Shown: positions 2,067 through 58,999 of the stretch, piece after piece
Layout: each line of letters starts with the position of its first letter
Numbering within the stretch: the stretch's first letter is position 1
Origin: Bacteriovoracia bacterium
Lineage (GTDB): Bacteria > Bdellovibrionota > UBA1018 > CAIPTA01
DNA length: 64,000 nucleotides
NCBI GenBank assembly: GCA_050246755.1
Contig: JBFWVL010000005.1
Span: 1-64,000 of the forward strand
Reading direction: 5' to 3'
Made by a program: the position numbers and the translations under genes
Notes under the pieces: generated by a model
What the model was told of the DNA's origin: nothing
Database searches by the model: none
What the model saw: only the letters and a program-made list of their open reading frames with translations

Positions 2067-2094
2067 TTATCGGCAGCAAATGAGAAAAAATCGA
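2067..2094 (-). promoter_or_regulatory. sigma28-like promoter TCGA-N16-GCCGATAA
   Basis: Perfect FliA -10 consensus GCCGATAA, 17 nt upstream of ATG 2049. Confidence 0.6.
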
Positions 2095-2201
2095 CTTATT
2101 TAACCTAGTTAAATCAAATACTTATAAGATAGTTTCGGGCTTCTGGAGCGTTGTACTCCGATTTGCGGTGCCCTGCCGAATAGAGTAAACCCTAGGGGCC
2201 C

Positions 2202-3221
2202 ATGGCCCGAGAACACCAAACCACCGCCGAAACCTACCTCGTCACCTGGACCGTTGAACCCGGTGAGGCCGGCATGCGCCTGGATCTTTTTCTGAAAGAA
2301 AAATACCGCAAGCTTTCGCGGGAATACCTACAGCGCGGAATCAAAGAGGGAAATATCACCCTCAATCACAAGCCCACGAAGCCGGCGGCGGTGCTGCGGC
2401 TGCAAGATAAAGTGTTCGTGCTCTCGAAGAATAAGGGCAAAGAGCCGGAAGTGGATTTCAACTACCAGGTTCTCTACGAAGACGAAACCGTGGTGGTGGT
2501 GGATAAACCGGGGAACCTGCCCGTGCATCCCACCGGACGGTATTTTTTCCACACGCTCCTCACGCAATTGCGGGTGGTGAACGGGAACGAAGTAGACCAG
2601 GAAAAAGAATTTTATATCGTGCACCGCCTCGATCGCGAAACCAGCGGAGTGCTGGTGATCGGAAAAAATCCGGAGTCGGCGGCGAGCCTCGTGAGCCAGT
2701 TCGAGAAGCGCGCTACCTCGAAGGAGTACCTCGCGATCGTTAAGGGCGTGGTGAAGGAAGATTCCTTCGTGATCGATGCCGCTCTCGGCACCGATCCGCG
2801 CTCGGTGATCCGGATCAAGATGCACGTGGTGGAAATGGGGCAGGATGGAGAGCCGCTCTATCTACCCAAATCGGAAGTATTGCCGGCGAGTACAGCGATC
2901 GAAGTGGTGGAACGATTCGAGAACTATACGCTTGTGCGCTGCCGCCCGCATACGGGGCGTCAGCACCAGATCCGCGTGCACCTCTGGCATATTGGGCACC
3001 CGATCGTGGGCGATAAGCTCTACGGCACCGAGGCGGAATTTTTTCTCCGGTCGCTGCAGGATATTCTATCGGTGGAAGTAGAGCCCGGGATTTTCCTGAG
3101 TCGCCATGCGCTCCACGCCTATAAGCTGGGATTTCGCCATCCGGTAACGGGCGAGCCCATGGAGTTCACCAGCGCGCTGCCTAAAGAGCTGGACGATTTC
3201 CTCGCGAAGGTGCGAAAGTAG
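2202..3221 (+). CDS. rluD: RluA/RluD-family pseudouridine synthase with N-terminal S4 domain
   Basis: RLDLFL S4 start, VVDKPGNLPVHP, catalytic HRLDRETSG, TGRQHQIRVHL, HPIVGDKLYG, LHAYKLGFRHP. Confidence 0.9.
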   Translation: MAREHQTTAETYLVTWTVEPGEAGMRLDLFLKEKYRKLSREYLQRGIKEGNITLNHKPTKPAAVLRLQDKVFVLSKNKGKEPEVDFNYQVLYEDETVVVVDKPGNLPVHPTGRYFFHTLLTQLRVVNGNEVDQEKEFYIVHRLDRETSGVLVIGKNPESAASLVSQFEKRATSKEYLAIVKGVVKEDSFVIDAALGTDPRSVIRIKMHVVEMGQDGEPLYLPKSEVLPASTAIEVVERFENYTLVRCRPHTGRQHQIRVHLWHIGHPIVGDKLYGTEAEFFLRSLQDILSVEVEPGIFLSRHALHAYKLGFRHPVTGEPMEFTSALPKELDDFLAKVRK

Positions 3222-3225
3222 GGGC

Positions 3226-4116
3226 ATGAAAGTCCGCAAGCCCCGCATCGCGGTTATTCTCACTCTGATCTGCCCCGGATTGGGTCAGCTGTATAACGGC
3301 AATCTGCCTTGGGCCGCGGCGGCCTTCGCGCTCGGCTCGGCCCTCTCGGTCGTGAGCGTAGTTTACCTCTTCGATTCTTTCTCCAAGCTTATCTGGGCGC
3401 TAGCGCTCGGCTTACTTTTTGATTTGGTATTCGCGGTGCAGGCATGGCGGGAATCCAAACGGCTCGGCGCGGTGGTGCTCAAGCCCTACCAGCGCTGGTG
3501 GATCTACGCGAGCTTCGTGGGCATTCTCTACGGAGTGCCCGACGGCTACGGCCTGCTCATGCCTTCCCGTTTTCTCAGCTTCCAAATTCCCAGCGAGTCG
3601 ATGGTGCCCACCTTGCTGGTGGGAGACCGCCTCGTGGCCGACGGGTGGAGCTTCTGGCACAACGCGCCCGCGCGGGGCGATGTGGTGGTATTCAATTATC
3701 CCAAAGATCCTTCGATCAAATACGTGAAGCGCGTGGTGGGTTTGCCCGGCGATATCGTGGAGATCAAGCAGGGGGAGCTCTACCTCAATAATAAAATCGT
3801 GGAGCAGGAGCGCTCGGGCCATGAGGTGGCGCCGGTGGGCGGCTGGCAGCCGGTGGAATTCGTGGAAAATCTCGGTGGCGTGGAGCATATCGTGTACCGG
3901 ACCCAGCCGATGCTCGTCGATAAATACGGGCCGGTGAAGGTTCCCAAAGATGAGTACTTCATGATGGGCGATAATCGCGATCGGTCTAACGACAGCCGTT
4001 TTTGGGGCTTTGTGCGACGTGATCAGATCGTGGGCCGCATGGCCTATATCTATTTTTCCTGGGATGGTGAGCATTCCCGGCTTCGCAGCGAGCGCCTGGG
4101 CCTTCCGGTTCACTAA
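3226..4116 (+). CDS. lepB: Signal peptidase I
   Basis: IPSESMVPTLLVGD (Ser), YVKRVVGLPGD (Lys), MGDNRDRSNDSRFWG; N-terminal TM helices. Confidence 0.95.
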   Translation: MKVRKPRIAVILTLICPGLGQLYNGNLPWAAAAFALGSALSVVSVVYLFDSFSKLIWALALGLLFDLVFAVQAWRESKRLGAVVLKPYQRWWIYASFVGILYGVPDGYGLLMPSRFLSFQIPSESMVPTLLVGDRLVADGWSFWHNAPARGDVVVFNYPKDPSIKYVKRVVGLPGDIVEIKQGELYLNNKIVEQERSGHEVAPVGGWQPVEFVENLGGVEHIVYRTQPMLVDKYGPVKVPKDEYFMMGDNRDRSNDSRFWGFVRRDQIVGRMAYIYFSWDGEHSRLRSERLGLPVH

Positions 4117-4118: not shown

Positions 4119-4146
4119 TAAAGAAATTATTGAAAATCGACGATAA
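4119..4146 (+). promoter_or_regulatory. sigma28-like promoter TAAA-N16-GACGATAA
   Basis: Motif ends 9 nt before ATG 4156; no obvious Shine-Dalgarno in between. Confidence 0.6.
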
Positions 4147-4155: not shown

Positions 4156-5022
4156 ATGAAGCATGTACTACTCACTTTTTCCATACTTTTAGCCGCCCCC
4201 GCTTGGGCCGCGAAAGTTCCCAAGCTTCCCGATTTAAAAAATACGAAAGAATTGCGCGAAGCCTGTGACCGCCTGAAGGAAAATTCAAACCGCGTGCTCG
4301 GCCCCGAAGTTACCGGATGCAGTTCTTTCTCGGGTTCGCTCGCGGCCGCGCGCACTGATTTACGCAGCGAAACGCTCGAGGGTTCCAAGAACGTGGAGGC
4401 CTTCTGCCGCGAGCTCGCGGACAAGCTGGATCACTTGCAGGACTATCGCAAAAAAGTAGCCGCTGCCTGCGCCGCCACCGGCGTGGCAACTTCGATGAAT
4501 CTTGTGAAGAGCAAGCTTGCCAGTTTTAATAAGCTGGGTGGCAAGTTGGCCGATTCGGAAAAGCAAATTGCCGGCGAAAGCGCCAACTGTGCCGGAAAGC
4601 TCGCGCCCCTCGTGCGCAAGAGCTCGCCGGACAATATGATCACTCCCGCCACGGTGCCCGAAGCCGCACCCACCGATACCCCGAAAGAAAATTATCCCAA
4701 GCTCTATAGCGAAGTGACCGATCGCGTGCGCGCGTTCACCAAGAAATCCAATAAGAGCGGAGGCGTGGCCGCCTACAGTGAGGATAAGGGCGATTGCGGG
4801 CAGCTAGCCGATCGCTATACGGAATTTGGGAACTACGTGCTTCGCTCCTTCAATCAGATGACGGATCTGATCTCCCGGGAAGAAGGCAGTACGGTTCATG
4901 ATCTCGAAAGCTACCGGCGCACGGCCACCGCGATGATGAATAAGGGGAAAGCCGTGGACGCCACGGTAAAAACCCAGACCAGCGAATTGCCGGCCAAGCA
5001 CTATAATCAGAGCGACGATTAA
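4156..5022 (+). CDS. Secreted alpha-helical hypothetical protein with several Cys
   Basis: Signal peptide ending AWA; Lys/Ala-rich helical composition; 6 Cys. Confidence 0.75.
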   Translation: MKHVLLTFSILLAAPAWAAKVPKLPDLKNTKELREACDRLKENSNRVLGPEVTGCSSFSGSLAAARTDLRSETLEGSKNVEAFCRELADKLDHLQDYRKKVAAACAATGVATSMNLVKSKLASFNKLGGKLADSEKQIAGESANCAGKLAPLVRKSSPDNMITPATVPEAAPTDTPKENYPKLYSEVTDRVRAFTKKSNKSGGVAAYSEDKGDCGQLADRYTEFGNYVLRSFNQMTDLISREEGSTVHDLESYRRTATAMMNKGKAVDATVKTQTSELPAKHYNQSDD

Positions 5023-6569: not shown

Positions 6570-7079
6570 CTAGAACGGCAGAAAGCGCTTTTCGCGGAAA
6601 TGCCAGAGCGAGCGGATGCGGCTGGGCGCACCGGTCTTGAACTCGTCTTCCGGAGCCCAGACTTCCATTTCGTAGGCAATTCCGTCCGGCAGCACTTCCA
6701 CCATCTCGTTATAATCCGCCACGATATGGTCATCGTCGGCAAAAGCCACGGGGCGAAACTTTTTTAGCTCCGAGTCAAAACGGTACACATACACGTGGCT
6801 CGCCTTCGGCGGCACGGTCACCCGCACCACGAACTCCTGTTTCCCGTCTCCATCGAAATCCTGGGCGGCAATCTTCCCACTCTTTCCCTCTTTGGTGAGG
6901 AACTGCACGTGCTCTCCGAGCCCACCGATCGTTTGTACATTCCCATCCGGCAAATGCACCTTGAGCGTGGCCTTCTCGTTGGCTTCCACGATCTCAATCT
7001 GGGCCGTGCCCTCCGCGCCGAGCTGTAACTCATTCGCGTGGGCGGCTAGGCTCAGCCATAAAACTAAAAGCAGCTGCAT
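6570..7079 (-). CDS. Secreted hypothetical protein with an FG-GAP/VCBS-like DFDGDG motif
   Basis: ORF 6570..7097, start MQLLL at 7079; QDFDGDGKQEF. Confidence 0.65.
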   Translation of the reverse strand: MQLLLVLWLSLAAHANELQLGAEGTAQIEIVEANEKATLKVHLPDGNVQTIGGLGEHVQFLTKEGKSGKIAAQDFDGDGKQEFVVRVTVPPKASHVYVYRFDSELKKFRPVAFADDDHIVADYNEMVEVLPDGIAYEMEVWAPEDEFKTGAPSRIRSLWHFREKRFLPF

Positions 7080-7951
7080 ACTTCCTTCTTTTCCCACTCT
7101 TCGAGCTTATTATTGCGCAAAATATTGGGGATATTCACTTGGTACTGGTCCCAGGGACAATAACTTCTCAAGCCCGGCATCATCTTCCGCCATTCCACCA
7201 ATCCCGGTTTCGCCTTCGCCACTTCCGCCCGGATGCTCTGGTAGGCCTTCGCCGTATTTTCGGCGTACATCAAGTTCTGGATATAGGAGAGGGTGGAGTC
7301 GATGGGGTTCGGGAACTTCAGGTACAGGATCCCGCCTTTTCCATTTCTTTCGCAGGACGTAACGATTTCTTTTTCCATCCCGGGAATCTGCACCTTGATC
7401 ACGCGCTTCTCGCCGGCCTTCCAGCAACGGTGGCCCGCAATATTATTCATTACCCGGTAGTTCGTGGAGCTACCCCATCCGCTCTCTTCGGCCCATTGGG
7501 AAATCATGAGCGAGGCGGGATACCCGGTGGCTTTCTGGAGCGCCACGGCAAGGGGGCCGTAGTAATTCTTGAACGCCTCCACGCGGGCTTTGCCCTGGGG
7601 GATCGCTTTGAAATCTGGCGCGGGAAGTTTCGGCAGGGGCAAACAGTTCCCGCTCACGCAGGGCTTCGTTTCTTCCTGCTTCTTGGCTTCTGGTTTTATG
7701 GACTCCATTTTCACGGGTTCGGTTTTGGCAGATTCTTCTTTGGCCGGCGCCATTTTCGCGGGCGCTTCTTCTCCGGTGGACCACGGAACAGTAATCGGCA
7801 GCGATTCCCCGCCGGGACCCACGGTGGCGGGCGGCTCTTCTTGCGAGTCCGTGGTGACGAAAAAGTCGGAAAGTTTCAAGGCAAAGGCCGGATTGGCTTG
7901 CAGGGAGAGGAGGGCCAGCGAGACGACAAAGAATTTCCGGGATGACCGCAT
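7064..7951 (-). CDS. Secreted glucosaminidase (GH73/FlgJ-like peptidoglycan hydrolase)
   Basis: Likely start MRSSRK at 7951 (the longer ORF runs antisense through the tRNA). Signal peptide, low-complexity linker, GYPASLMISQWAEESGWG and NNIAGH motifs. Confidence 0.8.
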   Translation of the reverse strand: MRSSRKFFVVSLALLSLQANPAFALKLSDFFVTTDSQEEPPATVGPGGESLPITVPWSTGEEAPAKMAPAKEESAKTEPVKMESIKPEAKKQEETKPCVSGNCLPLPKLPAPDFKAIPQGKARVEAFKNYYGPLAVALQKATGYPASLMISQWAEESGWGSSTNYRVMNNIAGHRCWKAGEKRVIKVQIPGMEKEIVTSCERNGKGGILYLKFPNPIDSTLSYIQNLMYAENTAKAYQSIRAEVAKAKPGLVEWRKMMPGLRSYCPWDQYQVNIPNILRNNKLEEWEKKEVCSCF

Positions 7952-8120
7952 GGAAGCTTTTCGGCGGAGTACCCGGTTTTCCAGAGTAGAAAAGTGGCTT
8001 GTTTTCCACCTCTTAGCGGTAGACGGCAGGATCGGGTGCGGGGCGATAAGACCTCGATTTCGCGGGGTTTTTCGAATTGACAGCGCCGGCCCCGATGACA
8101 TACACCAGTAACACAATTGT

Positions 8121-8197
8121 GGTGGTCGTAGCTCAGTTGGTAGAGCATCGGATTGTGATTCCGATGGTCGCGGGTTCGAGCCCCGTCGATCACCCCA
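8121..8197 (+). tRNA. tRNA-His (GUG)
   Basis: G-1 plus GTGGTCG acceptor stem, D arm AGCTCAGTTGGTAGAGC, anticodon loop TT-GTG-AT, GGTTCGAGCCC T arm, encoded CCA. Confidence 0.97.
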
Positions 8198-8289
8198 TTT
8201 TTTAAGCATCAAAAGCCCCTTCGGGGCGTAACTAACTAAAAACAAAAACTAAGAGTTTCTACGAGTTGTCGATCTCGCTCCTTTTTATT

Positions 8290-8315
8290 TTCACAAATTT
8301 TCACACTTCTTCACA
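8290..8315 (+). repeat. Three TTCACA direct repeats with exact 10-bp period
   Basis: ttcaca at 8290, 8300 and 8310. Confidence 0.7.
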
Positions 8316-8457
8316 CCAGTAGGGAGAATGACGGTGGGAGTCGAGGGGGATAACTATTTTGAACCCACGCACACGGACTGACGATCCGGAGGATGATTTT
8401 TGCAACGCCTGTAGCAGCAGAAATTCTAATCGCCCAATTAGAAAATTTAAGATGGGG

Positions 8458-9162
8458 TCAACGTCTCTGATCTTTGAAAAAGGAGGTTCTGAGGGACTGG
8501 AGCATTTGGGAAAGGTCAGAGTCGTAAGATAGTGGGAAGTTATTGTTTGAGCGGCTGTTATCTACATTCAACTTCTTTGCGGAATCTATTAAGCCCATTC
8601 GATTAAGAACAAGCTCAACCGCACCCGTAGCTTCGGGGGCGGTGCAGTTAAAGACTTCTCCAATGGTGGCTGAATTATCGAGATAGCTCGCCAGTATCTC
8701 ATGGGATTGCAGCTCAACATCTTCTGCACGGTTAGTGTAAAAGGCTGTATTTATGCTCCAGGTGCCGATTGTATGAGAAAACGTTGAAAATTGTTCAATG
8801 CGCTTCTCAAGCGTGGTGATCCTTCTTGTTGTGGAGTTTTTTTCAACGCCTGAGATTCTTTGTTTGCTTTCCTTCAAGCGGGTCAAATAGGACTTCGCCA
8901 ATTCAACGTCCTTTTCAAATGACAATGCTTTACTTCCCGAGCAAGACTTCCCAGATACTGGATGTGCGGGGATGTAACCTTGATCATCTACTAAGCGGCG
9001 ACTACCACAGATCTGACAGGTCCCGCTTATTCCTAGCCACTTCCTATTTACATCGAGTAAGCGTTCTTCAACTTTATTGATAGTCATTCCAATTTTTATG
9101 CGGTTTGCTTCTCGGTTTTCGAGAATATAAACGAAACCGTTCATTTGGCGAAAATCTGTCAT
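8458..9162 (-). CDS. GIY-YIG (T5orf172-like) nuclease with an inserted Cys/His metal-ribbon
   Basis: GFVYILEN...IKIGMT..KVEERL; CQIC...HPVSGKSC insert; E..SH..L and GEVFNC. Start at 9162 or 9144. Confidence 0.75.
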   Translation of the reverse strand: MTDFRQMNGFVYILENREANRIKIGMTINKVEERLLDVNRKWLGISGTCQICGSRRLVDDQGYIPAHPVSGKSCSGSKALSFEKDVELAKSYLTRLKESKQRISGVEKNSTTRRITTLEKRIEQFSTFSHTIGTWSINTAFYTNRAEDVELQSHEILASYLDNSATIGEVFNCTAPEATGAVELVLNRMGLIDSAKKLNVDNSRSNNNFPLSYDSDLSQMLQSLRTSFFKDQRR

Positions 9163-9309
9163 TTGAGGATATGCACTTCTGAATGTTTCGCGGCCTGGTG
9201 TAGGGCTAAATCCAAATAAACTTGAAGATCTTCGAGAGAATAATCTCGGAGAGGTTTCCAACCAATCTTGTGGAGCAGGGCTTCTTCTCCGCTACTAAGT
9301 ATAAATTGT

Positions 9310-9861
9310 CTAATTACTTCCTTTGCCATCCAAATTACTCCGAACTGTGCCTCTTTTAATCAATGAATCAAAAAATATCTGCGTATCTTTTTGCTTCAAT
9401 TTTTCATCGAGTAGTGCTCTGGGTTTCGAGTCTTGATTTTCAATGTAAGTTCCTTCCTTCAATCTCTTGAATGCTTGAGGATACAAAGTTTGATACGCAT
9501 TGATAGTTGCTGTTCCCAGTGCATCATCTTTGGTCTGAACGGACTTTACCAGATCTTCATCGAGCATACTTCTGACGGCAAAATCAATCTGGCTCCATTC
9601 TTGCTCACTCAAATAAGGTTCAAGGGCTATTTTAGCAATAACTTTATCTGCCGCTTTGCCGGACATGAGTATGGGCAGAAACTCCTTTATCATTGCCGCC
9701 TTGTCGTGGTTTTTTGATATATCAGAGTCGGACTTATTTTTATCAGTTGCGATCTGATTGGCGGTAGTAGTCCCTACATAAGTTAGAGCGGCTATCGCAA
9801 TTGGAACTAAAAGACTAGTTAGCCATCGCTCCCATGCTTTTACGTCGTAGTTGCAGTTCAT
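9310..9861 (-). CDS. Hypothetical protein with one N-terminal TM helix
   Basis: 183-aa AT-rich ORF; LLVPIAIAALTYVG helix. Confidence 0.65.
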   Translation of the reverse strand: MNCNYDVKAWERWLTSLLVPIAIAALTYVGTTTANQIATDKNKSDSDISKNHDKAAMIKEFLPILMSGKAADKVIAKIALEPYLSEQEWSQIDFAVRSMLDEDLVKSVQTKDDALGTATINAYQTLYPQAFKRLKEGTYIENQDSKPRALLDEKLKQKDTQIFFDSLIKRGTVRSNLDGKGSN

Positions 9862-9907
9862 TTGCGGATCTGCCTTTCTTGCTTGTTTTAGTAATTAGAA
9901 TCTTCTC

Positions 9908-11071: not shown

Positions 11072-11115
11072 GGCATCCCCACGACTTTCAAAGCTTCAGC
11101 TAAATGGAAAACGGC

Positions 11116-14900: not shown

Positions 14901-15014
14901 AATTAATGCCGAGGATGTGAGGCCACACTTTCATTGACAGGTGAGTGCCGAATCGGCTGTAATTATTTCTCCAATAAGTTTAGGGCTTAAACTCTTTCGG
15001 ACGATAGGCATGGT

Positions 15015-26323: not shown

Positions 26324-26491
26324 GCATAGCCAACCTTTTACTAAAAGTTAGCTTCGATAAATTCTTAGCTAGAGCGGCCGTTTATGCCCTTTTCCTTGAG
26401 CATATTAGCCCCCAAGTTTGATTTGGCGAAAAATGCCCGGTTTTTTCCATATTTACCTAACTTTTGCGTATGGATTTCCCGATATAGCCAC

Positions 26492-37409: not shown

Positions 37410-39353
37410 TTACTTCTTAGACATCTGCACGCGCAGTGCTTTTAGGAAAGCAGCTTTTTGCACGGGATCGCTCATCACGTTACTAAGGCGTGCGGCGGTT
37501 TGATTCCCGAAGAGCCCATCCGTGGCGAGCCGAGAGGCCGGAGAGCGCTCGCTTTGCATGCTGTTGAGCGCACGCTGAATGATGGCGGTGTCTTTTTTGC
37601 TATAGAGATCGAGGTCGCGTTTTTTGAGCTCTTCGTTCTGCTGGTAGTAGTTCCGCAAGTCTTTTGAATTCAACGCGGTATTATCCTCGGAAGTGATTTT
37701 GGGCGTGATATCTCCGGTGCTTTCTTTGTAGGCCACGTCGGCCTCTGCGGCGGGGGCGGGCATATAGACGGGTTTTACTTCCGGAGCGGTCTCCATTTTA
37801 TCCGCGTGCTCATTCGCGTAGGCCGCGTCTGCTTCCGCAGCGGGGGCCGGCATATAGGCAGGCTTTTCTTCTACGGGACCATAGCCGGTAGAAATGGGAA
37901 CCCTCGGTGCCTCGGGAACGGGTTTTTCCTCTACGGGGCCGTAGCCCGTAGAGATCGGAACTTTCGGCGCCATGTTCTGCGATTCCAAAACGGCCGGCGG
38001 CTTTTGCTCGATATCGCTATAGGCGGGTAGCGAGCTGAAAGCGTCGGCATCGGAACCAGTATAATAAGGTTCATTTACCGGCGTAGGGGTCGGCGGCGGA
38101 GCGGGAGCCAAGGATTGCGAAGTCACTTGGGCCAGCTCAGGAGAATGGATTTCGGCGGCCGGAGTGGGCGCAGGCTCTGTTTTCACGGCTTGAGATTTTG
38201 CCGTTTCGTGTTCATAAGCCACATCGGCTTCCGCGGCCGGAGCGGGCATATGGGAAGTTTCGGCATGGGTACTCACTTCCGTTTTCGGAGCTTCGATTTC
38301 CTTCAAAAACTTCTGCGTGGAGTCGGCCACGTTATTGTCGCCCTTGGGTTCGCTCACGGGGGAGGTATGCTCAGATTTCACGGGGGCAGTTTTTTCCGCA
38401 ACTTCCTGCGAAGCAATCGGCTTCGGCGGCTCCACGCCACTCGGCTTGGAGGCTAACTCGTCCTTTTTCTCCTCTGCTTTAGAAACTCCGGAGGCTTTTT
38501 CTGGTTTGGCTTGTCCCTTAATCGGTTCGGCCGCTTCGGCGGTTTTTTCCGGGCAGGTTTTGGCCACGCCTTCGGTTTTCGCGATCATAGTGGCTAGCGT
38601 GGTAGAATCTTTTTTCATCTGCGTAGCGAGCGCTTCCAATTGCTTGGCGAGCGTGGCCATCGTGCCGGAACGCTGGTTGGTTAAAGAGTTCAACGTTTGC
38701 AGTACGGTAGCAGGACAGTTTCCGGGCGCATTGGCCGGTTCGTAGATCATCACGAGGCCTTTGTACGGGCTAGACGGAGGAGTGGAGAGAGCGGAAAAAG
38801 ACGAAACTTCGGCACCGCACGCGGCCGACGTTCTTTTAAATGAGGCTGAGTCGGTGTGAAGCTCTTCGAGTTTTTGCTTGAGGCCTTTGTCGTTCGAGTT
38901 GTTGGCTTTATTGTCCACGATCTTCATTACTGCGGCATAGCCGGAATCGAGCGCGGCCTTTTTCTTTTTCTCTGATTCCACCGCTAGCTCCGGGCCTTCC
39001 GCGCAAATCGTAACATTGCTTAGTTTGGAGGCATCGATGCCTTTGGCCAGTTCGGCTTCCACCGCGGCGAGCTTATCGTGCAGGAATTTTTTTATGTCGT
39101 TTACATCGTTCTTGGTGGGGTTGATGAAGCCCTGCTGCGGAGTGGTCACGCCGGTTTTCGGGCAAGGGGATTTGTCGTAGTAGCGAGAGCAGCCGTTGCC
39201 GAAATTGGCCAAGGTATTAATTTGCGATTCGAAAGTTTGGAGGGTTTTCGAAATATCGGCGCGATAGACCGCGTAGGAGCCCGCTTGCTGGGCATGCGCG
39301 GCGGCAGACCACGAAAGCAGTAAGGCTAAGCAAATAGGGGTTATTCTTTGCAT
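37410..39353 (-). CDS. Secreted protein: Cys-containing helical N-domain, repeat-rich linker, C-terminal peptidoglycan-binding-like domain
   Basis: Signal peptide AHA; MPAPAAEAD.AY x3, VPISTGYGPVEEKP x2; IQRALN...LATDGLFGNQT. Confidence 0.8.
   Translation of the reverse strand: MQRITPICLALLLSWSAAAHAQQAGSYAVYRADISKTLQTFESQINTLANFGNGCSRYYDKSPCPKTGVTTPQQGFINPTKNDVNDIKKFLHDKLAAVEAELAKGIDASKLSNVTICAEGPELAVESEKKKKAALDSGYAAVMKIVDNKANNSNDKGLKQKLEELHTDSASFKRTSAACGAEVSSFSALSTPPSSPYKGLVMIYEPANAPGNCPATVLQTLNSLTNQRSGTMATLAKQLEALATQMKKDSTTLATMIAKTEGVAKTCPEKTAEAAEPIKGQAKPEKASGVSKAEEKKDELASKPSGVEPPKPIASQEVAEKTAPVKSEHTSPVSEPKGDNNVADSTQKFLKEIEAPKTEVSTHAETSHMPAPAAEADVAYEHETAKSQAVKTEPAPTPAAEIHSPELAQVTSQSLAPAPPPTPTPVNEPYYTGSDADAFSSLPAYSDIEQKPPAVLESQNMAPKVPISTGYGPVEEKPVPEAPRVPISTGYGPVEEKPAYMPAPAAEADAAYANEHADKMETAPEVKPVYMPAPAAEADVAYKESTGDITPKITSEDNTALNSKDLRNYYQQNEELKKRDLDLYSKKDTAIIQRALNSMQSERSPASRLATDGLFGNQTAARLSNVMSDPVQKAAFLKALRVQMSKK
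37417..37736. repeat. 320-bp direct repeat, copy 1
   Basis: Matches 39439-39758 except at 37449/39471 and 37721/39743. Confidence 0.95.
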
Positions 39354-39360: not shown

Positions 39361-39388
39361 TTATCGGCTATGTGGACCCATAAGTTTA
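39361..39388 (-). promoter_or_regulatory. sigma28-like promoter TAAA-N16-GCCGATAA
   Basis: -10 element ends 7 nt before ATG 39353. Confidence 0.75.
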
Positions 39389-39434: not shown

Positions 39435-40958
39435 TTATTTAGACATCTGCACGCGCAGTGCTTTTAGGAATGCAGCTTTTTGCACGGGATCGCTCATCAC
39501 GTTACTAAGGCGTGCGGCGGTTTGATTCCCGAAGAGCCCATCCGTGGCGAGCCGAGAGGCCGGAGAGCGCTCGCTTTGCATGCTGTTGAGCGCACGCTGA
39601 ATGATGGCGGTGTCTTTTTTGCTATAGAGATCGAGGTCGCGTTTTTTGAGCTCTTCGTTCTGCTGGTAGTAGTTCCGCAAGTCTTTTGAATTCAACGCGG
39701 TATTATCCTCGGAAGTGATTTTGGGCGTGATATCTCCGGTGCCTTCTTTGTAGGCCACCTCGGCGGGCTTGGAATCTGGTTTCGCCACGCTTTCTTCGAA
39801 AGCAAAGGGATCGCGATCTAGAGATTTTGCCACGGGATGCGATTCAGGGGGCTGGGGGACTACTTCCGGATCCGTTAAAATTTGTTTAGCTACGCCGCCG
39901 GCGGAATTTTCTTTATCGGCGGTAGTGGTGGAAATGGGGGCGTCGGCTTTTTTGGCTTCTGGCGCAGCGGCCGCTGCGATCGGAGTAGGCTGAACATCGC
40001 TTTTTTTCTCGTCAGCTTTCGACACGCCGGAGGGTTTCTCATCTTTTGCCGGTCCCGTTGGGATGGGCGGAGTTTCCTGCGCGATGCTCGTTGGGCAAGA
40101 TCGGCCCACGGCGGCAGTGGCTACCATTACTTTATCAATTTTTTCGGAGGCGTCGTTCATTTTTTTCGAAAGCGCTTCTAGCTGGGTGACCACGGCTTTA
40201 ACTTGGCCTTTTTCTTTATCGGCAATAGTGAGGTAGCTTTTCAGCACGGAGCTATCGCAGCTAGGGTGCTTGTTGTCTTTAGAAAACGCCAAGGCGAGAC
40301 CAGCGTGCGGGGTTGGTGGAATATTCCTATCAACGGTTCCGACGAATTTTACGAAGCCAGAGGCAAACCCTGCTTCTCTGTCGGATACGATATTCCCGCA
40401 TTTTTTTGCGGTGGAAAGATAAGGCTCTCCGCCTCTATGCAATTCATTGAACTTCTCTTTGAGGCCGTCGTTTTTCTTGGGGTCGGCGCCATTTAGCAGT
40501 AAATTGATGGCGGCGATGGAATCGGCGAGAGACTTTTTCTTTTGTGAGAGGGAGTTGAGCGAAACTTCTGGGCCGGATTGGCAAACGGTTACTTTATCGA
40601 GCGCGTTGGCGCTGATTCCTTCCGCCAAGGTGGCTTCGGTCTCTTTGAGTTTTCCTTCGAGGAAGGCCTTCACTTGATTCATATTCGTTCTGGTGGGATT
40701 AATGAAATCTGCTTTATTTCCATTTACGCCGGCAACGCCGGGGCAGATTGGATGATCCATGTAATCGGTGCATCCGCTTCCCTTTTGTTCGATATTTTTT
40801 AAATTCGAATTCACGCTATTGATCGCTTGGTCTATCGCGGTCCGGTTTGCGATGAATGCTTGCTTGTCGGCAGCCGGATCTCCGGCGCCCGCGAAAGCAG
40901 GACGGTGAAACGGGAGAAGGGCTAGTGTGACTAATAAAACTTGGGGTAGTTTTGTCAT
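39435..40958 (-). CDS. Secreted paralog of 37410..39353 with the same peptidoglycan-binding-like tail
   Basis: Shared N-terminal motifs (G.GC..Y....CP, FINPT, VT.C..GPE, GLK.K..ELH, KPSGV) but clearly diverged; near-identical last ~105 aa. Confidence 0.8.
   Translation of the reverse strand: MTKLPQVLLVTLALLPFHRPAFAGAGDPAADKQAFIANRTAIDQAINSVNSNLKNIEQKGSGCTDYMDHPICPGVAGVNGNKADFINPTRTNMNQVKAFLEGKLKETEATLAEGISANALDKVTVCQSGPEVSLNSLSQKKKSLADSIAAINLLLNGADPKKNDGLKEKFNELHRGGEPYLSTAKKCGNIVSDREAGFASGFVKFVGTVDRNIPPTPHAGLALAFSKDNKHPSCDSSVLKSYLTIADKEKGQVKAVVTQLEALSKKMNDASEKIDKVMVATAAVGRSCPTSIAQETPPIPTGPAKDEKPSGVSKADEKKSDVQPTPIAAAAAPEAKKADAPISTTTADKENSAGGVAKQILTDPEVVPQPPESHPVAKSLDRDPFAFEESVAKPDSKPAEVAYKEGTGDITPKITSEDNTALNSKDLRNYYQQNEELKKRDLDLYSKKDTAIIQRALNSMQSERSPASRLATDGLFGNQTAARLSNVMSDPVQKAAFLKALRVQMSK
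39439..39758. repeat. 320-bp direct repeat, copy 2
   Basis: Offset 2022 bp from copy 1; two mismatches. Confidence 0.95.
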
Positions 40959-40965: not shown

Positions 40966-40993
40966 TTATCGGCACTTTTCAGAACTAGATTGA
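40966..40993 (-). promoter_or_regulatory. sigma28-like promoter TCAA-N16-GCCGATAA
   Basis: -10 element ends 7 nt before ATG 40958. Confidence 0.75.
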
Positions 40994-41959: not shown

Positions 41960-42340
41960 CTAGGCGGCTTTTTTTTGCGGGACCGGGCCGGCAGTGCGCT
42001 CGAGCTCGGTTTTCACCGCGGCGAAGGTAGCTTTCAATTCGGGGAAAACCGCGAGTAGGTTTTCCAGATCTTTTAGCTTTGCGGCTTCTTCTACCCGGAT
42101 GAACAAATCGGTGAGCCCAAGGGCGCCGAGATTCGCCGAGGCGGATTTTAACTGGTGGGCTAGGCCGTTGAGGGCCGCGAAATCCCGGGCGGCGAGGGCG
42201 TTTTCCATTTCATTCACTTTAGCGGGAGCCTGTTGCAGGTAAACGTGGGCCACTTCGGCATAGAAGTCTTTTCCGGGGTCACCGAGCTCTCGCAGGCTTT
42301 TTACGGATTCCGGATGGATGAGCGGCGCTTTATTGATCAT
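41960..42340 (-). CDS. Hpt (histidine phosphotransfer) domain protein
   Basis: AHQLKSASANLGA. Confidence 0.92.
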   Translation of the reverse strand: MINKAPLIHPESVKSLRELGDPGKDFYAEVAHVYLQQAPAKVNEMENALAARDFAALNGLAHQLKSASANLGALGLTDLFIRVEEAAKLKDLENLLAVFPELKATFAAVKTELERTAGPVPQKKAA

Positions 42341-42376: not shown

Positions 42377-42404
42377 CTATCGGTGAAAGATACGGCATAC
42401 TTGA
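42377..42404 (-). promoter_or_regulatory. sigma28-like promoter TCAA-N16-ACCGATAG
   Basis: 36 nt upstream of the Hpt start. Confidence 0.6.
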
Positions 42405-47394: not shown

Positions 47395-47487
47395 GGCAAA
47401 TCCTCCGTTAAGGCTCTATCGGCTAAATAGTAAATCCTTTGCAGGCGATTGCAAAGGCTCAACCCGTTATTTTCACTAAAGATTGTT

Positions 47488-54277: not shown

Positions 54278-54649
54278 TTACGGCTTCTTCGCTTCGGCTT
54301 GCAGGCGCGTGAGAATCTCTTTGGGAATCGAGGGATGTTTTTCCTGTAGTTCCGCGGCGGTATCGTGGCGTGCGCGCATGTAGAGCATATCGCGATCCAG
54401 CTCATCGAGGTTTTTCACGTGAGACTCTAAACCAGGTACGCGCGCGAACACCGCCTCACGCTGCTCTTTATCCGGAAGGGCGTCGGGGTGCGGCACCCGC
54501 TTCGGCAAAGCTTTCACTTGGATATTCTTATGCTTACGGAACGCCTTTTCCGGATAGACCTTCGGGTCTACCTCCACGGTTCCCGAAGGAATCTCTTCGG
54601 CGAACGCGAAGGCGGAAAAGAGCAGGCTTAGCAACAGCAGTTTTTTCAT
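54278..54649 (-). CDS. Small secreted hypothetical protein
   Basis: Signal peptide AFA; ATGA-coupled to the upstream gene. Confidence 0.7.
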   Translation of the reverse strand: MKKLLLLSLLFSAFAFAEEIPSGTVEVDPKVYPEKAFRKHKNIQVKALPKRVPHPDALPDKEQREAVFARVPGLESHVKNLDELDRDMLYMRARHDTAAELQEKHPSIPKEILTRLQAEAKKP

Positions 54650-56196
54650 CGTGACCTCGGCCGCAGCACGGTGCCTTCGATCCAGTTAAAGGGGATCGCG
54701 TCGCGCGCCAGCGTTTCTTCGGGAGAAATTTTCTCTCCCTCACCCACGGTGTGTTCGCCCTGGAGAAAAAACAGCGGGCGGAGCACGGGGAATCTGTTTT
54801 TGGCCGATTGCAGTGCCTGCCACTGCGCGCGGGCGGCCGGATCGCCGTTTTGCACGGCGCGGGCGAGCTGCTTTTCTTTCAGTCTCATCTCGGCCTGGAT
54901 ATCGTTATAGCTTTTCACGAATTCCACGCGCCCCGTTTTTCCGTCGAGCGCGGGCACGACGGAACTGATTCCGGCCTCCTCCAAATCTTTATCGAGCGCC
55001 GCGAGGTCGTTGGCGAAGTAGGTATTGAAATTTTTCTGCACCCGCCACCAGAAGATGAGGCGAATCACGCTTTCACGGATCGATTTGCGGTAGTCTTCCA
55101 TTTCCTTCTCTTGCCCTTTATTTTGCAAAGCGTTTTTGGCCGGGCACACGTTTTGGAGCGCGGTATAGAAAATCCGGAGTGGGGAAGAGGCGGAATCGAA
55201 GCTCGGCGGATTCTTTTTCAGGGAGCGTAGGTCCAGGTAGGTATCCTGGATGGACTCCGCTTGGGCCAGGATCGTGGTCCATTGCTCGTCGCAGGTAAGA
55301 GCATTGCCGGCGCCGGGCTGGCCCTCGATGATCTGGCGGCAGTAGTCGATCACGGACTGGGTTCCGGTCACACTCGATAGCCGCTTGAAGGCCCGCTCGA
55401 TCAGCGAAGGATCCAGGGCGCGCCCCGTAACGCCGATTTCGTTATCGAGCTTGCAGGCTAGATCGAGGTTCTGCGAAATATACTCGCGCGCCACCGCCCG
55501 GGTGCGGCTCGGGGCTTTCACGCCGAAGCCGGCGATCAAGGTGGCGTAGGGGAAAAGGGAATTCCAATGGGGACGGTTGTTTTCCGTCATGTTGTAGCAG
55601 CCCAGCAGCAGCACGTTCTGGGTGGAGCGAAAAACGCCCGGGCTACGCTGGAGAACTTCGTCGAGGTCGCCCCAGGACAGGCGGTTGGCGCTTTCCCCGG
55701 TGAAGTTCCAGCCGTCGGCGTGGGCGCTGATGGCGAAAGAGGAGATACTGCCCTTGGCCTGGCGAATGGCTTTTGCGGTATCTTCGAATTGCTCGGCGAT
55801 GGTGCCATATTCCTGTTCCGCTTTGTTCAGCAAATGGGTTTGTCGGAAGAGATCCTTGATCTCGGTGGCGTATTTTTGCGCGATCGCCGGATCGCCCTGC
55901 CACTTGCCGCCGTTGCGCATGATCTCTTCGATCGCGTTGTCCACTTCGCCTTTTTTCCATTCGGGCCGTTCGGCTTGCAATTTGGCCGCGAGGGAATCAC
56001 GTTTGGCGAAGAGGGCTTCCCCCACCGGAATCATTTCGAGGGGCGGGATGGAAACTGGGATTCTCCCGCAGGCCTCCGAGCTTTTTTTGAAAGCCTGCCA
56101 CTCGGCATTTGAATAATTCATGTTCACCATCAGCGCGTATTCCGCGGCCAAAGCCGGGAAGGGAAGCAGCGTGAGGAGGAGGGCGAGGAACCGCAT
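54646..56196 (-). CDS. Secreted hypothetical protein, possible His/Cys peptidase-like motif
   Basis: Signal peptide ALA; ISAHADG and VLLLGCYN resemble caspase/CHAT-like dyad strands (weak). Confidence 0.7.
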   Translation of the reverse strand: MRFLALLLTLLPFPALAAEYALMVNMNYSNAEWQAFKKSSEACGRIPVSIPPLEMIPVGEALFAKRDSLAAKLQAERPEWKKGEVDNAIEEIMRNGGKWQGDPAIAQKYATEIKDLFRQTHLLNKAEQEYGTIAEQFEDTAKAIRQAKGSISSFAISAHADGWNFTGESANRLSWGDLDEVLQRSPGVFRSTQNVLLLGCYNMTENNRPHWNSLFPYATLIAGFGVKAPSRTRAVAREYISQNLDLACKLDNEIGVTGRALDPSLIERAFKRLSSVTGTQSVIDYCRQIIEGQPGAGNALTCDEQWTTILAQAESIQDTYLDLRSLKKNPPSFDSASSPLRIFYTALQNVCPAKNALQNKGQEKEMEDYRKSIRESVIRLIFWWRVQKNFNTYFANDLAALDKDLEEAGISSVVPALDGKTGRVEFVKSYNDIQAEMRLKEKQLARAVQNGDPAARAQWQALQSAKNRFPVLRPLFFLQGEHTVGEGEKISPEETLARDAIPFNWIEGTVLRPRSR

Positions 56197-56202: not shown

Positions 56203-56230
56203 CTATCGGACTAAAGCGCCCCGGAGTTTA
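56203..56230 (-). promoter_or_regulatory. sigma28-like promoter TAAA-N16-TCCGATAG
   Basis: -10 element ends 6 nt before ATG 56196. Confidence 0.65.
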
Positions 56231-56289: not shown

Positions 56290-56649
56290 TCAGCGCAGGC
56301 GTTTTTTCCATTCGTCTTCCTTGAACCCAACGAAGCCGAAGCCCTCGCCCAGCACGAAAGGACGCTTCACCAGCCGCCCGTTGCCGGCCAAAAGATCGAT
56401 CTGCTCGGCTTCGCTCATGGTGGGCAGCTTCTTCCCTAGGCCGAGTTCGCGGTACACGAGGCCGGAGGTATTGAAGAGGGGTTTGAGGCCGCCGAGCTCT
56501 TTGGCCATCGCGCGCAGCTCGGACTTGGTGGGCGGTTGGCTGGTGATATCGATTTTTTCGAAAGGAATTTTTTTCGTTTCGAGAAACTTCAGCGCTTTCC
56601 TGCAAGTGCTGCAGCCGGAATACTCATAAATTTTTAGCTGGTTCTTCAA
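56290..56649 (-). CDS. ArsC/Spx/YffB family protein
   Basis: CSTCRKALKFL, LFNTSG..YREL, LVKRPF, VGFKEDEW. Confidence 0.9.
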   Translation of the reverse strand: MKNQLKIYEYSGCSTCRKALKFLETKKIPFEKIDITSQPPTKSELRAMAKELGGLKPLFNTSGLVYRELGLGKKLPTMSEAEQIDLLAGNGRLVKRPFVLGEGFGFVGFKEDEWKKRLR

Positions 56650-58096
56650 GCGGGGCCTCCTTTCCCATAGGCACGATTTTGGGAAAAAATAATCCGATCA
56701 CGAGCGCCAGCAGCGCGATGCCGGCGCTGAAAAAGAAAATTTTATGGAGCCCGCGGTCCATCAGCACCACGAGGCGGCCGAGCATTTCCGGCGACACGCC
56801 TTCTCCCGGCGCCGTGCTGATCAAATCGTTGGCCAAGCCGATCGGCAAGGAAGGATCATGGCGCAAAGATTTTGCGAGCACGGCTCCCATCACGCCCACC
56901 GAGATCGTGCCGCCGATGGTGCGGAAAAATAAATTGCTCGCGGTTGCCGTGCCGCGGCGATTCCAGTCCACGGCCGATTGCACCGAGAAGAGCAGGGGAA
57001 TATTCGAAAAGCCCATACCGAGCCCGAGGGTGCCCATCCCGATCATCAGCACGAACAAGGGAAGATCGAAGTAGGCGCCGAGCGCCGTGATCGAAGTGCC
57101 GGTCAGCACTAAGCTGAGCCCGAGGCGCAGCAGGGAGCGGAACCCCACGCGGGAGAGGATTCGGGCCGAGAGGCCGCTAGCGAGCGGCCACGCCAGGCCC
57201 ATCGGGATGATGCTGAGCCCGGCGGCGAAAATCCCGAGGCGGCGCACTCCTTCCACGTAGAGCGGGAGGTAGGTTACGAAGCTCAGCATGGTTCCCCCGA
57301 GCATGATGCTCACGAGGGACGCGTTCGAGATCACGGGATTGGCGAAGATATCCAGCGGCACGATCGGCTCTTTGCTTCGCTGCTCCACGAGTAAGAAAGC
57401 CACGAAACAGAAAATGGAGAAGGGCACGAGGAGCACGCTGTCTTCGGGATCGTTCACCGCGATCAGCACGCACACGATGGCGGCGCTCAGGAGCAGCGCT
57501 CCCGGCCAATCGAGAGAGGTTTTTTTTCGCTCCACTTTTTCAATCAGCGCTTTCTGGATGATCACCGCCGCGGCGATGCCGAAGGGAATATTCACGAGGA
57601 AGATCCAGGGCCAGCCTAGCGTTTCCACCACGATGCTGCCGATCATTGGGCCCAGTAATCCCGCCACGCCCCATACGGTGCCGAAGATGGCCGTCACACG
57701 CGCGCGTTCCTTAATCGTAAAAATATCCCCGCTGATCGTGAGCCCCATAGGTTGGATCGCACCGGCCCCGAGCCCCTGGATCGCGCGAAAGGCGATCAGC
57801 TGCGCCATCGAGTGCGAGAACGCCGAGCAGAGGGAGCCGAACAGGAAGAGGCAAATGCCGAACTGGAGCACGGGCTTACGCCCGTAGAGATCGGCGAGTT
57901 TTCCGTAGATCGGCACCGTGACGGTAGAGCTCATCATGTAGGCGGTGAACACCCAGGCGTAACGCTCAAGGCCGCCGAGGTCTCCCACGATGGTGGGCAT
58001 CACCGTGGCCACCGCGGTGGCTTCCATGGCTGCTAGGAATACGCCGCACAAAAGCGCGATCACGGTCCATTTGCGGTTGGTGGTTGCGGTAGACAT
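56624..58096 (-). CDS. 14-TM MFS multidrug transporter (DHA2 type)
   Basis: ATVMPTIVGDLGG, YGKLADLYGRK, RAIQGLGAG, WPWIFLVNIPFG. Confidence 0.92.
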   Translation of the reverse strand: MSTATTNRKWTVIALLCGVFLAAMEATAVATVMPTIVGDLGGLERYAWVFTAYMMSSTVTVPIYGKLADLYGRKPVLQFGICLFLFGSLCSAFSHSMAQLIAFRAIQGLGAGAIQPMGLTISGDIFTIKERARVTAIFGTVWGVAGLLGPMIGSIVVETLGWPWIFLVNIPFGIAAAVIIQKALIEKVERKKTSLDWPGALLLSAAIVCVLIAVNDPEDSVLLVPFSIFCFVAFLLVEQRSKEPIVPLDIFANPVISNASLVSIMLGGTMLSFVTYLPLYVEGVRRLGIFAAGLSIIPMGLAWPLASGLSARILSRVGFRSLLRLGLSLVLTGTSITALGAYFDLPLFVLMIGMGTLGLGMGFSNIPLLFSVQSAVDWNRRGTATASNLFFRTIGGTISVGVMGAVLAKSLRHDPSLPIGLANDLISTAPGEGVSPEMLGRLVVLMDRGLHKIFFFSAGIALLALVIGLFFPKIVPMGKEAPLEEPAKNL

Positions 58097-58216
58097 CAGG
58101 CTCTAAAAAAGGCGGCGAGCCTGTGGGTAAGACGAGGAAAATAGGAGAGAAAATGGGCGCACTGCAAAGAGAAGCCTCCTGGGCCGGGTGGCCCAAGAGA
58201 ACTATCATTTGGCTAA

Positions 58217-58999
58217 TTAAGCGGCAATTCGAATCTCAGTCGTGGAATCGGCCATGGTCTCTTTTAGTTGAGCGATTCCCTTTGCATGGAGCTGGCAAAC
58301 GCGAGATTCCGAGAGGTGGAGGCGCGTGCCGATCTCTTTTAGGTTCAGCTCCTCGAAATAATAGAGGCTGAGCACTTTTTGCTCCATTTCGGGAAGGAGC
58401 TTGAGGGCCGCTTCGATTTGGTCGCGCACGTTATGACGGCTCGCTTCCTCAAAGGGATTGGCGTGCGAATGGTCGTCGGGCACGAGCTCGATCGTGGTCT
58501 GGGTGCGATCCTCGGCGCCGCCGGCGCGGGCGTAGGAGGCGAGGTTCATCTGCTCGAGGGTATTCACGTCGCGCACGAGCTGCTCGAATTTCGGCTTGCT
58601 CAAGTGAAGGGCCTGGCAGAGCTCTTTGTCGGTAGCGGAACGCCCTTTATTCTCGCGCAGCTTTTCGCAGATGCGGGAAAACTGCTTGGCCTTTTGGCGC
58701 ATGCCTTTCGGGCACCAGTCCTGCGAGCGCAGCTCATCGAGCATGGCGCCGCGGATGCGGAATTCCGCGTAGGTTTTGAATTTGAAGCCTTTCTCGGGCT
58801 TGAAGCGCTCGAGCGACTGCATGAGGCCGATGAGGCCCGCGGAAACGAGATCGTCGAATTCCACGCTGGAGGGCAAACGCGCCGACATTTTCTTCGCCAC
58901 GATTTTCACGAGCGAAAAATATTCGAGCATGAGCGTCTCGCGCGTTTTGTTCTTAGAAGGTTCTGCTTTTTTGGAGGTCGCGGTGGTTACGTACTTCAT
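58217..58999 (-). CDS. fliA: FliA/WhiG-family sigma factor (sigma28)
   Basis: RLPSSVEFDDLVSAGLIGL, FKTYAEFRIRGAMLDELRSQDW, LYYFEELNLKEIG..L.LSESRVCQLH. Confidence 0.92.
   Translation of the reverse strand: MKYVTTATSKKAEPSKNKTRETLMLEYFSLVKIVAKKMSARLPSSVEFDDLVSAGLIGLMQSLERFKPEKGFKFKTYAEFRIRGAMLDELRSQDWCPKGMRQKAKQFSRICEKLRENKGRSATDKELCQALHLSKPKFEQLVRDVNTLEQMNLASYARAGGAEDRTQTTIELVPDDHSHANPFEEASRHNVRDQIEAALKLLPEMEQKVLSLYYFEELNLKEIGTRLHLSESRVCQLHAKGIAQLKETMADSTTEIRIAA

Follow-up and report, generated by a model that had tools for sequence, protein, structure and literature searches.

The first 64,000 nucleotides (nt) of contig JBFWVL010000005.1 (GenBank assembly GCA_050246755.1), from a Bacteriovoracia bacterium of the phylum Bdellovibrionota and here called the window (C5:1-64000; other contigs are likewise given as C1 to C3), raise the question of what drives a set of genes that share a two-block motif upstream of their start codons. 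The original prediction had read this motif as a sigma-28 (FliA-type) promoter that produces leaderless mRNAs for secreted proteins. We consider it likely that this motif serves as the promoter of a sigma-28 regulon spread over the genome, with the architecture known from attack-phase promoters of Bdellovibrio bacteriovorus, that the half of these promoters abutting a start codon gives leaderless mRNAs, and that their cargo is secreted. The type of regulon and its N16 spacer are already known from B. bacteriovorus; no discussion of the leaderless layout was found in the literature searched. The first reading is largely right but mostly re-finds a known type of regulon. The window also encodes a second, family-restricted FliA paralog.

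A sigma-28-type promoter motif occurs throughout the genome

Direct reading of the sequence recovered all seven predicted instances of the bipartite motif, at the given coordinates and with the given distances to ATG. Counting of the single hexamer CCGATA was dropped: with 36 occurrences in the window vs 27.1 ± 5.2 in shuffled sequence (at least 36 in 7 of 100 shuffles), it is not enriched there. The bipartite pattern T[AC][AG]A-N17-CCGATA showed the expected excess over shuffled background, with five occurrences vs a mean of 0.42 and a maximum of 2, and none of the 100 shuffles reached five.

The genome comprises 3.55 Mb in 10 contigs with 54.6% G+C, of which 89% was covered by 3164 genes called with a crude codon-usage open reading frame (ORF) picker. 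We collected 60 genome-wide sites solely by the presence of CGATA 6–11 nt before the first ATG of a gene. Relative to the C of CGATA, these sites had T at -22 (43/60), A at -20 (38/60) and -19 (39/60), G at -18 (24/60), and G/C at -2/-1. A -35 box that had not been selected for therefore appears at a single register, TnAAG-N16-CCGATA, the same as in the predicted TAAA-N16-GCCGATAA. A scan of intergenic DNA with a two-block matrix found the spacers N16 (46 sites), N15 (18) and N17 (8), compared to 4–7 sites for N11–14 and N18–21. The spacer is thus predominantly 16 nt and not fixed at this length, as had been claimed.

A weight matrix iterated over the whole genome drifted into coding matches (from 268 to 382 sites) and was replaced by a fixed one, used together with spacer and off-spacer controls. 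This genome-derived matrix, applied with spacers of N15–17, yielded 106 gene-linked matches, five of them in the window, which makes up 1.8% of the genome. The motif is spread genome-wide and is not peculiar to the window. With a GCCGATAA-like -10 and a TAAA(G)-like -35 at about 15–16 nt spacing, the promoters are of the FliA/sigma-28 type, an identification borne out by the position matrix, the spacer scan and the five of seven window sites that pass the matrix.

About half of the promoters abut the start codon

Where CCGATA is followed by an ATG that starts a frame of 100 or more codons, the distance between them (d) peaks genome-wide at 7–8 nt, in agreement with the short distances first noted in the window: 18 cases have d = 7 and 27 have d = 8, vs 2–9 and 1–17 for nine control hexamers. 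When the first ATG per frame of the called genes was taken, CGATA gaps numbered 21, 12, 6 and 9 at d = 7, 8, 9 and 10, and 0–7 at each of the remaining distances between 0 and 44. Of the 106 matrix matches, 34 fell at d = 6–11 and 37 at d = 20–60, compared to 2–13 and 9–12 in three off-spacer controls; at d = 12–19 there was no excess (six matches vs 2–3 in the controls). The distribution is thus bimodal, and its gap lies where a leader would be too short for a ribosome-binding site (RBS). Because the counts exceed the controls in both distance ranges, about 60 of the promoters are genuine, and about half of these abut the start codon. The 34 start-abutting genes have N16 (29) or N15 (5) spacers and start with ATG (26) or GTG (8). 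The 7–10 nt between the -10 box and the start leave no room for a transcribed Shine-Dalgarno box.

The 7–8 nt peak matches the gap published for B. bacteriovorus, where the promoter strings in Table S2 of Karunker et al. 2013 (PMC3627812) place, by eye, the transcription start site (TSS) 7–8 nt past CCGATA. Since the distance from the -10 box to ATG equals the mapped distance from the -10 box to the TSS in that organism, the start-abutting sigma-28 promoters probably give leaderless mRNAs. The leaderless layout is also a general feature of this genome that is independent of sigma-28. Among 2107 genes whose longest start is ATG, 169 (~8%) carry a sigma-70-type -10 box (TAnnnT) exactly at -12 from ATG, compared to 10–59 genes at every other offset, and 164 of the 169 have no Shine-Dalgarno box; Shine-Dalgarno tetramers peak at -10 (275 genes). 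The secreted cargo is the specific mark of the sigma-28 leaderless class. The leaderless reading was upheld insofar as the -10 box lies 7–10 nt before the start at four window genes and about 34 genes genome-wide, but the layout is not exclusive to sigma-28.

The start-abutting class mainly encodes signal-peptide-like, relatively Cys-rich proteins

Signal peptides were called from a hydrophobic 10-mer near the N terminus together with a small-x-small motif. By this crude heuristic, the suspected enrichment of signal peptides among the targets was found: 29 of the 39 genes with CGATA at -14 to -11 (74%) encode signal-peptide-like proteins, vs 727 of the 2107 genes whose longest start is ATG (34.5%; odds ratio 5.7, p = 4e-7). 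Among genes with the sigma-70-type leaderless layout and no Shine-Dalgarno box, the share stayed at background (59/164). In the matrix-defined start-abutting set, 25 of 34 proteins were signal-peptide-like vs 979 of all 3164, and 24 of 72 among the leadered or unclassified matches. The mature part of the signal-peptide-like targets contained a median of 1.26% Cys vs 0.80% in other signal-peptide-like proteins (p ~9e-4), and 25 of the 29 had at least two Cys.

The union of both definitions comprises 55 leaderless-class targets, of which the 51 outside the window were compared with Pfam at E ≤ 1e-4. No Pfam family was assigned to 34 of the 55 (30/51 outside and 4/4 inside the window). Among the other 21 are four DUF4423 proteins, two each of trypsin-like proteases, histidine kinases and response regulators, and one each of a YkuD-type L,D-transpeptidase, a peptidase C26 and an HDOD protein, as well as a few probable false matches (integrase, heptosyltransferase). 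No flagellar Pfam family occurred among the 55. The description of the targets as non-flagellar, mostly uncharacterised, signal-peptide-bearing and relatively rich in Cys was thus borne out in the Pfam, signal-peptide and Cys tests.

The four DUF4423 (PF14394) paralogs lack a signal peptide, and each has a start-abutting sigma-28 promoter:
C1:126983-127804, DUF4423 paralog
C1:27571-28338, DUF4423 paralog
C2:352216-353034, DUF4423 paralog
C3:164572-165384, DUF4423 paralog
A fifth gene, whose product has an N terminus like that of the DUF4423 paralogs, lies behind a promoter box at C1:754302 (-) with a short leader.

Promoters and target genes in the window

The matrix passed five of the seven predicted sites (4119-4146, 39361-39388, 40966-40993, 42377-42404 and 56203-56230). 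Four of them abut a start codon (genes at 4156, 39353, 40958 and 56196) and one is leadered (Hpt gene at 42340). These promoters and their targets are:
4119..4146 (+), sigma-28-type promoter TAAA-N16-GACGATAA; passes the matrix; ATG at 4156, 10 nt past CGATA
4156..5022 (+), target gene; 288-amino-acid (aa) protein with a signal peptide and several Cys; without a family in Pfam or NCBIfam
39361..39388 (-), sigma-28-type promoter TAAA-N16-GCCGATAA; passes the matrix; CCGATA to ATG 8 nt
37410..39353 (-), target gene; 647-aa signal-peptide protein
40966..40993 (-), sigma-28-type promoter TCAA-N16-GCCGATAA; passes the matrix; CCGATA to ATG 8 nt
39435..40958 (-), target gene; 507-aa signal-peptide protein, no family
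56203..56230 (-), sigma-28-type promoter TAAA-N16-TCCGATAG; passes the matrix; CCGATA to ATG 7 nt
54646..56196 (-), target gene; 516-aa signal-peptide protein, no Pfam family
42377..42404 (-), leadered sigma-28-type promoter TCAA-N16-ACCGATAG; passes the matrix; CCGATA to ATG 37 nt
41960..42340 (-), target gene; 126-aa cytoplasmic Hpt phosphotransfer protein (PF01627, 43.6 bits)

The leader of the Hpt gene contains AAGGA, a Shine-Dalgarno box, 4 nt before ATG. The remaining sites are weaker:
2067..2094 (-), doubtful site; good -10 GCCGATAA, weak -35 TCGA; CCGATA to ATG 18 nt
26458..26485 (+), doubtful site; -10 CCCGATAT, weak -35 TAAC; CCGATA to ATG 7 nt
7958..7965 (-), -10-only box GCCGAAAA (CCGAAA), 7 nt before ATG; no recognisable -35
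7064-7951 (-), target of the preceding box; signal-peptide protein with a glucosaminidase domain
47416..47423 (-), candidate leadered sigma-28-type promoter GCCGATAG; partial -35 TGCAA; 21 nt before ATG
14980..15007 (+), additional weak candidate TTAGG-N16-ACGATA, absent from the original list and not a matrix match; its target, a NicO/DsbD_2-type membrane protein, has its ATG at 15015, 8 nt past CGATA

The ATG distance of 18 nt at site 2067-2094 belongs to a class without genome-wide excess. Downstream of site 26458-26485, the histidine-kinase frame is open from 26384, which makes the start ambiguous (26384 or 26492). The box at 47416-47423 precedes an 82-aa ORF, and its 21-nt leader contains GGAGGA.

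Several further observations concern these genes. A signal peptidase I (Peptidase_S26) gene at 3226-4116 (+) stops 3 nt before the promoter of the gene at 4156. The genes at 37410-39353 and 39435-40958 are tandem secreted paralogs, each with its own sigma-28 promoter; the C-terminal 112 aa of their products are 96% identical and the remainder ~34%, a pattern that suggests recent gene conversion or domain swapping. Their shared C terminus was PG_binding_1-like by Atlas (score 0.82), which is a lead only, and found no support for this domain in Pfam at E ≤ 1. No ortholog of the 507-aa protein was found in the 12 relatives searched with it as query. For the 516-aa protein, language-model and structure searches gave a clostripain/caspase-like fold, again as a lead only: the nearest Atlas cluster was “Clostripain family protein” (score 0.96), and the structure weakly resembled CHAT, caspase and gingipain folds. 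Its ISAHADG and LLLGCYNM stretches could make a His/Cys dyad; Pfam at E ≤ 1 did not support a clostripain or caspase family. Elsewhere in the window, the region 8001-24000 differs in G+C content (47–52% vs 55–60%), has many short ORFs on the minus strand, and may be an island or a prophage remnant.

Two FliA paralogs and the flagellin promoters

Two proteins of the genome match the FliA/WhiG family above the TIGR02479 cut-off (189.6 bits), which answers how many FliA paralogs there are:
C1:1731750-1732424, FliA1; TIGR02479 271.6 bits
58217..58999 (-), fliA2, second FliA/WhiG-family sigma factor; TIGR02479 233.6 bits
The gene for FliA1 is the last of a fliO-fliP-fliR-flhB-flhA-flhF-flhG cluster, with two flagellin genes ~9 kb away. 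The neighbours of fliA2 are genes for an MFS transporter, ArsC, an FKBP isomerase and a TonB system, none of them flagellar; the presence in the window of a FliA-type sigma factor without flagellar neighbours was thus confirmed by its TIGR02479 score and by the adjacent genes. FliA2 contains sigma-70 regions 2 and 4. Region 3 was missing from its Pfam matches at E ≤ 1e-3 but is reported for FliA1.

Within the family, seven of eight genomes have an ortholog of FliA2 with 65–78% identity. In the 17 genomes searched outside the family, the best match to FliA2 had 41–45% identity and was of the FliA1 type, and none of the 80 other sampled genomes of the phylum had two FliA matches over the cut-off. 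Judged by these comparisons, FliA2 is family-restricted. FliA1 and FliA2 are 42% identical; the region 2 stretch KFKTYAEFRIRGAMLDELRSQDW is identical in both, and the helices of region 4.2 are very similar. Region 2.4 of sigma factors has an established role in the recognition of the -10 box, and the identical stretch therefore suggests that both paralogs have the same -10 target. Either or both could read the promoters described here. No sigma-28 box pair at correct spacing was found upstream of fliA2. The sigma factor encoded in the window, which the original prediction had linked to the motif, is not needed as its driver: 71 of 81 sampled genomes show the layout, and a second FliA over the family cut-off was found in this genome alone.

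Five to six flagellin-type genes are present in the genome (C1:1439933-1443032 region and others). By eye, three of them have TTAAG/TAAAG-N15-CCGA[AT]N promoters with leaders of ~80–190 nt, i.e., the spacer is one base shorter than in the secreted-protein class. In B. bacteriovorus, Table S2 lists N15-CCGAAA and a 164-nt leader for the flagellin gene Bd0606 (PMC3627812). A flagellin promoter with a spacer one base shorter and a long leader is thus common to both organisms. The idea that N15 and N16 mark a paralog-based split into flagellar and secreted branches was rejected as evidence, because the same split appears in Table S2 for B. bacteriovorus; with Bd0606 arranged in the same way, the spacer difference is not assignable to the paralogs alone.

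The layout is conserved within the genus and across the phylum

The 516-aa target has orthologs with 39–44% identity in genomes of the same genus, with alignments starting at residue 1. Upstream of two of them (39–42% identity), a -35-like box, a spacer of N16/17, CCGATA, 7–8 nt, the ATG and the signal peptide are all kept, in upstream DNA that is otherwise unrelated. At the level of the phylum, the strict leaderless pattern TNAA-N17-CCGATA-N7/8-ATG had 310 matches in 81 Bdellovibrionota genomes, with at least one in 71 of them, compared to 27 matches for the reversed pattern. The genome studied here has the highest count of all 81 (12 matches). One family (f15) is largely without the strict pattern (matches in 3/9 genomes). 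A variant with N13/14 before the ATG had 105 matches in the 81 genomes vs 26 for its reverse.

To compare the genes behind such sites, 40 N7/8 sites from five other genomes and 20 N13/14 sites were taken from the listed part of the output, not at random, and the N13/14 control set excluded sites that also have an ATG at 7–8 nt. The ATG frame was open for ~120 codons at 30 of the 40 N7/8 sites vs 4 of the 20 N13/14 sites (p = 7.5e-5), and the product was signal-peptide-like at 17/40 vs 1/20. The start-abutting sigma-28 layout is thus conserved within the genus and across the phylum.

Comparison with other leaderless and sigma-28 systems

The class 3 promoters of flagellar genes, which depend on FliA in E. 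coli and Salmonella and on SigD in Bacillus subtilis, have the form TAAA-N15-GCCGATAA, and the enterobacterial class 3 genes have leaders. The promoters found here resemble them in having both boxes and in the presence of an encoded FliA/WhiG-family sigma factor, but most spacers are longer by one base, the targets are non-flagellar, and about half of the promoters abut the start. In the leaderless mRNAs of Actinobacteria and Deinococcus-Thermus, the -10 box lies ~7 nt before the start codon. A -10 box at -12 to -7 is seen here too, with no room for a transcribed Shine-Dalgarno box and with more ATG than GTG starts; unlike in those phyla, a sizeable subset lies behind sigma-28-type promoters and is biased to secreted proteins. 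To our knowledge, the Bdellovibrionota are not among the phyla commonly cited as having leaderless genes. WhiG of Streptomyces and sigma-28 of Chlamydia are examples of FliA/WhiG sigma factors in a developmental or non-motility programme, in organisms that have one such sigma factor and no flagella, or use it in sporulation. In contrast, the orphan paralog described here coexists with a flagellar FliA.

The closest relative of the regulon is the attack-phase regulon of B. bacteriovorus HD100, for which Karunker et al. mapped 140 attack-phase TSSs, found TTAAG-N16-CCGATA in 92 of these promoters and concluded that FliA has come to control surface proteins, proteases and hypotheticals globally in the attack phase (PMC3627812). 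Consensus and register are the same here, with TTAAG-N16-CCGATA preceding many non-flagellar genes. Surface or secreted proteins, proteases, signalling proteins and many hypotheticals make up the targets in both cases, and both regulons mix start-abutting with leadered promoters. Consequently, N16 is no departure for this phylum but belongs to the published attack-phase consensus of B. bacteriovorus, and a non-flagellar FliA regulon of surface and secreted proteins has already been described there (PMC3627812). The differences are that the organism studied here belongs to another, uncultured family known only from metagenome-assembled genomes and possesses the second, family-restricted FliA paralog, and that the attack-phase regulon of B. 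bacteriovorus is expression-mapped, whereas the promoters reported here were recognised in the DNA itself.

We computed the lengths of the 5′ untranslated regions (UTRs) from the coordinates in Table S2 of PMC3627812. Among the 93 promoters listed there with a FliA site, the TSS falls on the annotated start codon in 21; the UTR measures 0–4 nt in 28 cases, 5–9 nt in none, 10–19 nt in 21 and at least 20 nt in 23. For another 21, the TSS lies within the annotated ORF, which probably reflects mis-called starts. Among the 47 promoters listed as lacking a FliA site, the TSS falls on the start codon in four. The zero-leader genes of the table are mostly of the “cell wall surface anchor”, YapH-, RTX- or lipoprotein type or hypothetical. 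The word “leaderless” does not occur in the main text of that paper (PMC3627812), and a printed account of leaderless sigma-28 transcripts in Bdellovibrionota was not found in the searchable full-text literature.

A model for the regulon and its alternatives

In the model that we favour, the promoter consists of the -35 box TnAAG, a spacer of usually 16 and sometimes 15 nt, and the -10 box CCGATA(A/G). In about half of the cases, CCGATA ends 7–8 nt (up to 10) before the start codon, and RNA polymerase carrying a FliA paralog would start at, or 1–2 bases from, the A of AUG, because sigma-28 polymerase starts 7–8 nt past CCGATA in B. bacteriovorus. The resulting mRNAs would have no Shine-Dalgarno box and may be translated as leaderless messages through direct binding of 70S ribosomes and initiator tRNA. 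Their products, mainly relatively Cys-rich proteins of no known family with a Sec signal peptide, next to some proteases, cell-wall enzymes and signalling proteins, would leave by the Sec route, and their expression may be phase-specific as in B. bacteriovorus. The other half of the promoters would give leaders of ~12–50 nt, such as that of the Hpt gene in the window with its Shine-Dalgarno box.

Several points weigh against this model. Two of the seven predicted sites, 2067-2094 (TCGA) and 26458-26485 (TAAC), have a poor -35 box and fail the matrix. Because distance to ATG was the criterion for the sites behind the matrix, the absolute counts of the leaderless class are partly circular, which the off-spacer controls answer only in part, and some matches are surely false, with a XerC-like integrase, a heptosyltransferase and a PHP protein among the “targets”. 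Our own crude heuristics were used to call genes, to choose starts and to recognise signal peptides, and the signal-peptide background of 31–44% is clearly inflated by membrane proteins. A GTG start is found in 8 of the 34 genes with leaderless layout; leaderless GUG starts are functional in mycobacteria but poor in E. coli. The position of the transcription start is carried over from another genus, and since the commonest gap from CCGATA is 8 nt to the TSS in B. bacteriovorus vs 7 nt to the ATG here, some starts might be one base off the A of ATG. Finally, removal of the RBS is reported to lower strongly the reporter output from B. bacteriovorus FliA promoters, although the constructs described were not true leaderless fusions (PMC12622784).

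A chance or codon-usage artefact, with CCGATA arising from Pro-Ile or Ala-Asp-xx codons at 3-nt periodicity, is next to impossible in our view. CCGATA alone is indeed not enriched in the window, and matches in coding DNA have a strong 3-nt periodicity, but such an artefact is refuted by the shuffles of the bipartite pattern (5 vs 0.42), by an enrichment confined to intergenic DNA at N15–N16, by the reversed pattern (27 vs 310) and by the unselected -35 box emerging at one register. The boxes might, on the other hand, be real, with the adjacent ATG not being the start or the TSS lying elsewhere, so that the mRNAs would be conventionally led. The start position here is indeed transferred from another genus, 21 of the 93 FliA-site TSSs of B. 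bacteriovorus lie inside annotated ORFs, which makes start annotation uncertain (PMC3627812), and the window gene 26384/26492 has an alternative upstream start. We nevertheless hold this to be very unlikely: the peak at 7–8 nt is sharp, with no excess at 12–19 nt; signal peptides, which must be N-terminal, begin exactly at the adjacent ATGs; the ortholog alignment of the 516-aa target begins at residue 1; the ATG frame is open at 30/40 sites in other genomes vs 4/20 controls; and 21 of the 93 published FliA-site TSSs sit on a start codon (PMC3627812).

A division of labour between the paralogs, with FliA2 as the dedicated sigma factor of the N16 leaderless secreted branch and FliA1 reading the flagellar promoters, deserves somewhat more attention, although we think it unlikely. 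Such a duplication would uncouple the expression of the secretome from the control of flagellar assembly. It would fit with this genome being the only one of 81 sampled with two FliA/WhiG matches over the cut-off and also having the highest count of the strict leaderless pattern (12), with the retention of FliA2 at 65–78% identity in seven of eight family genomes away from flagellar neighbours, and with the three N15 flagellin promoters with long leaders, one base under the N16 class. However, the N16 leaderless layout occurs in 71 of the 81 genomes and a second FliA over the cut-off only here. The identical KFKTYAEFRIRGAMLDELRSQDW and the similar region 4.2 point to the same or a very similar target, and fliA2 itself has no correctly spaced sigma-28 promoter upstream. 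Moreover, B. bacteriovorus, for which one fliA (bd3318) is discussed, has both an N16 leaderless class and an N15 flagellin promoter (PMC3627812, PMC12622784).

Significance

These results carry the concept developed for Bdellovibrio, in which a flagellar sigma factor has come to control secreted and surface proteins globally, over to an uncultured family, and they reveal a promoter grammar that is common across the phylum. They also draw attention to an undiscussed feature of published TSS tables, according to which about a quarter to half of these promoters would lead to leaderless mRNAs, preferentially for secreted proteins. This matters for the engineering of B. bacteriovorus, which treats “promoter plus native RBS” as a unit (PMC12622784), while several FliA promoters have no RBS; for Bd1130, for instance, Table S2 places the TSS on the start codon (PMC3627812). 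Likewise, gene callers that expect Shine-Dalgarno boxes will misplace such starts.

More tentatively, start-fused sigma-28 promoters might serve throughout the phylum as a channel for a leaderless secreted and surface “attack” proteome, which FliA2 would have taken over in this family, a possibility that we consider doubtful as a whole. If true, a developmental sigma factor would be coupled to translation independent of Shine-Dalgarno boxes, e.g., in non-growing cells rich in 70S ribosomes, and the duplicated FliA2 would free the secreted branch from flagellar checkpoint control. The family-restricted second FliA thus offers a natural test of how the regulon of an alternative sigma factor can split.

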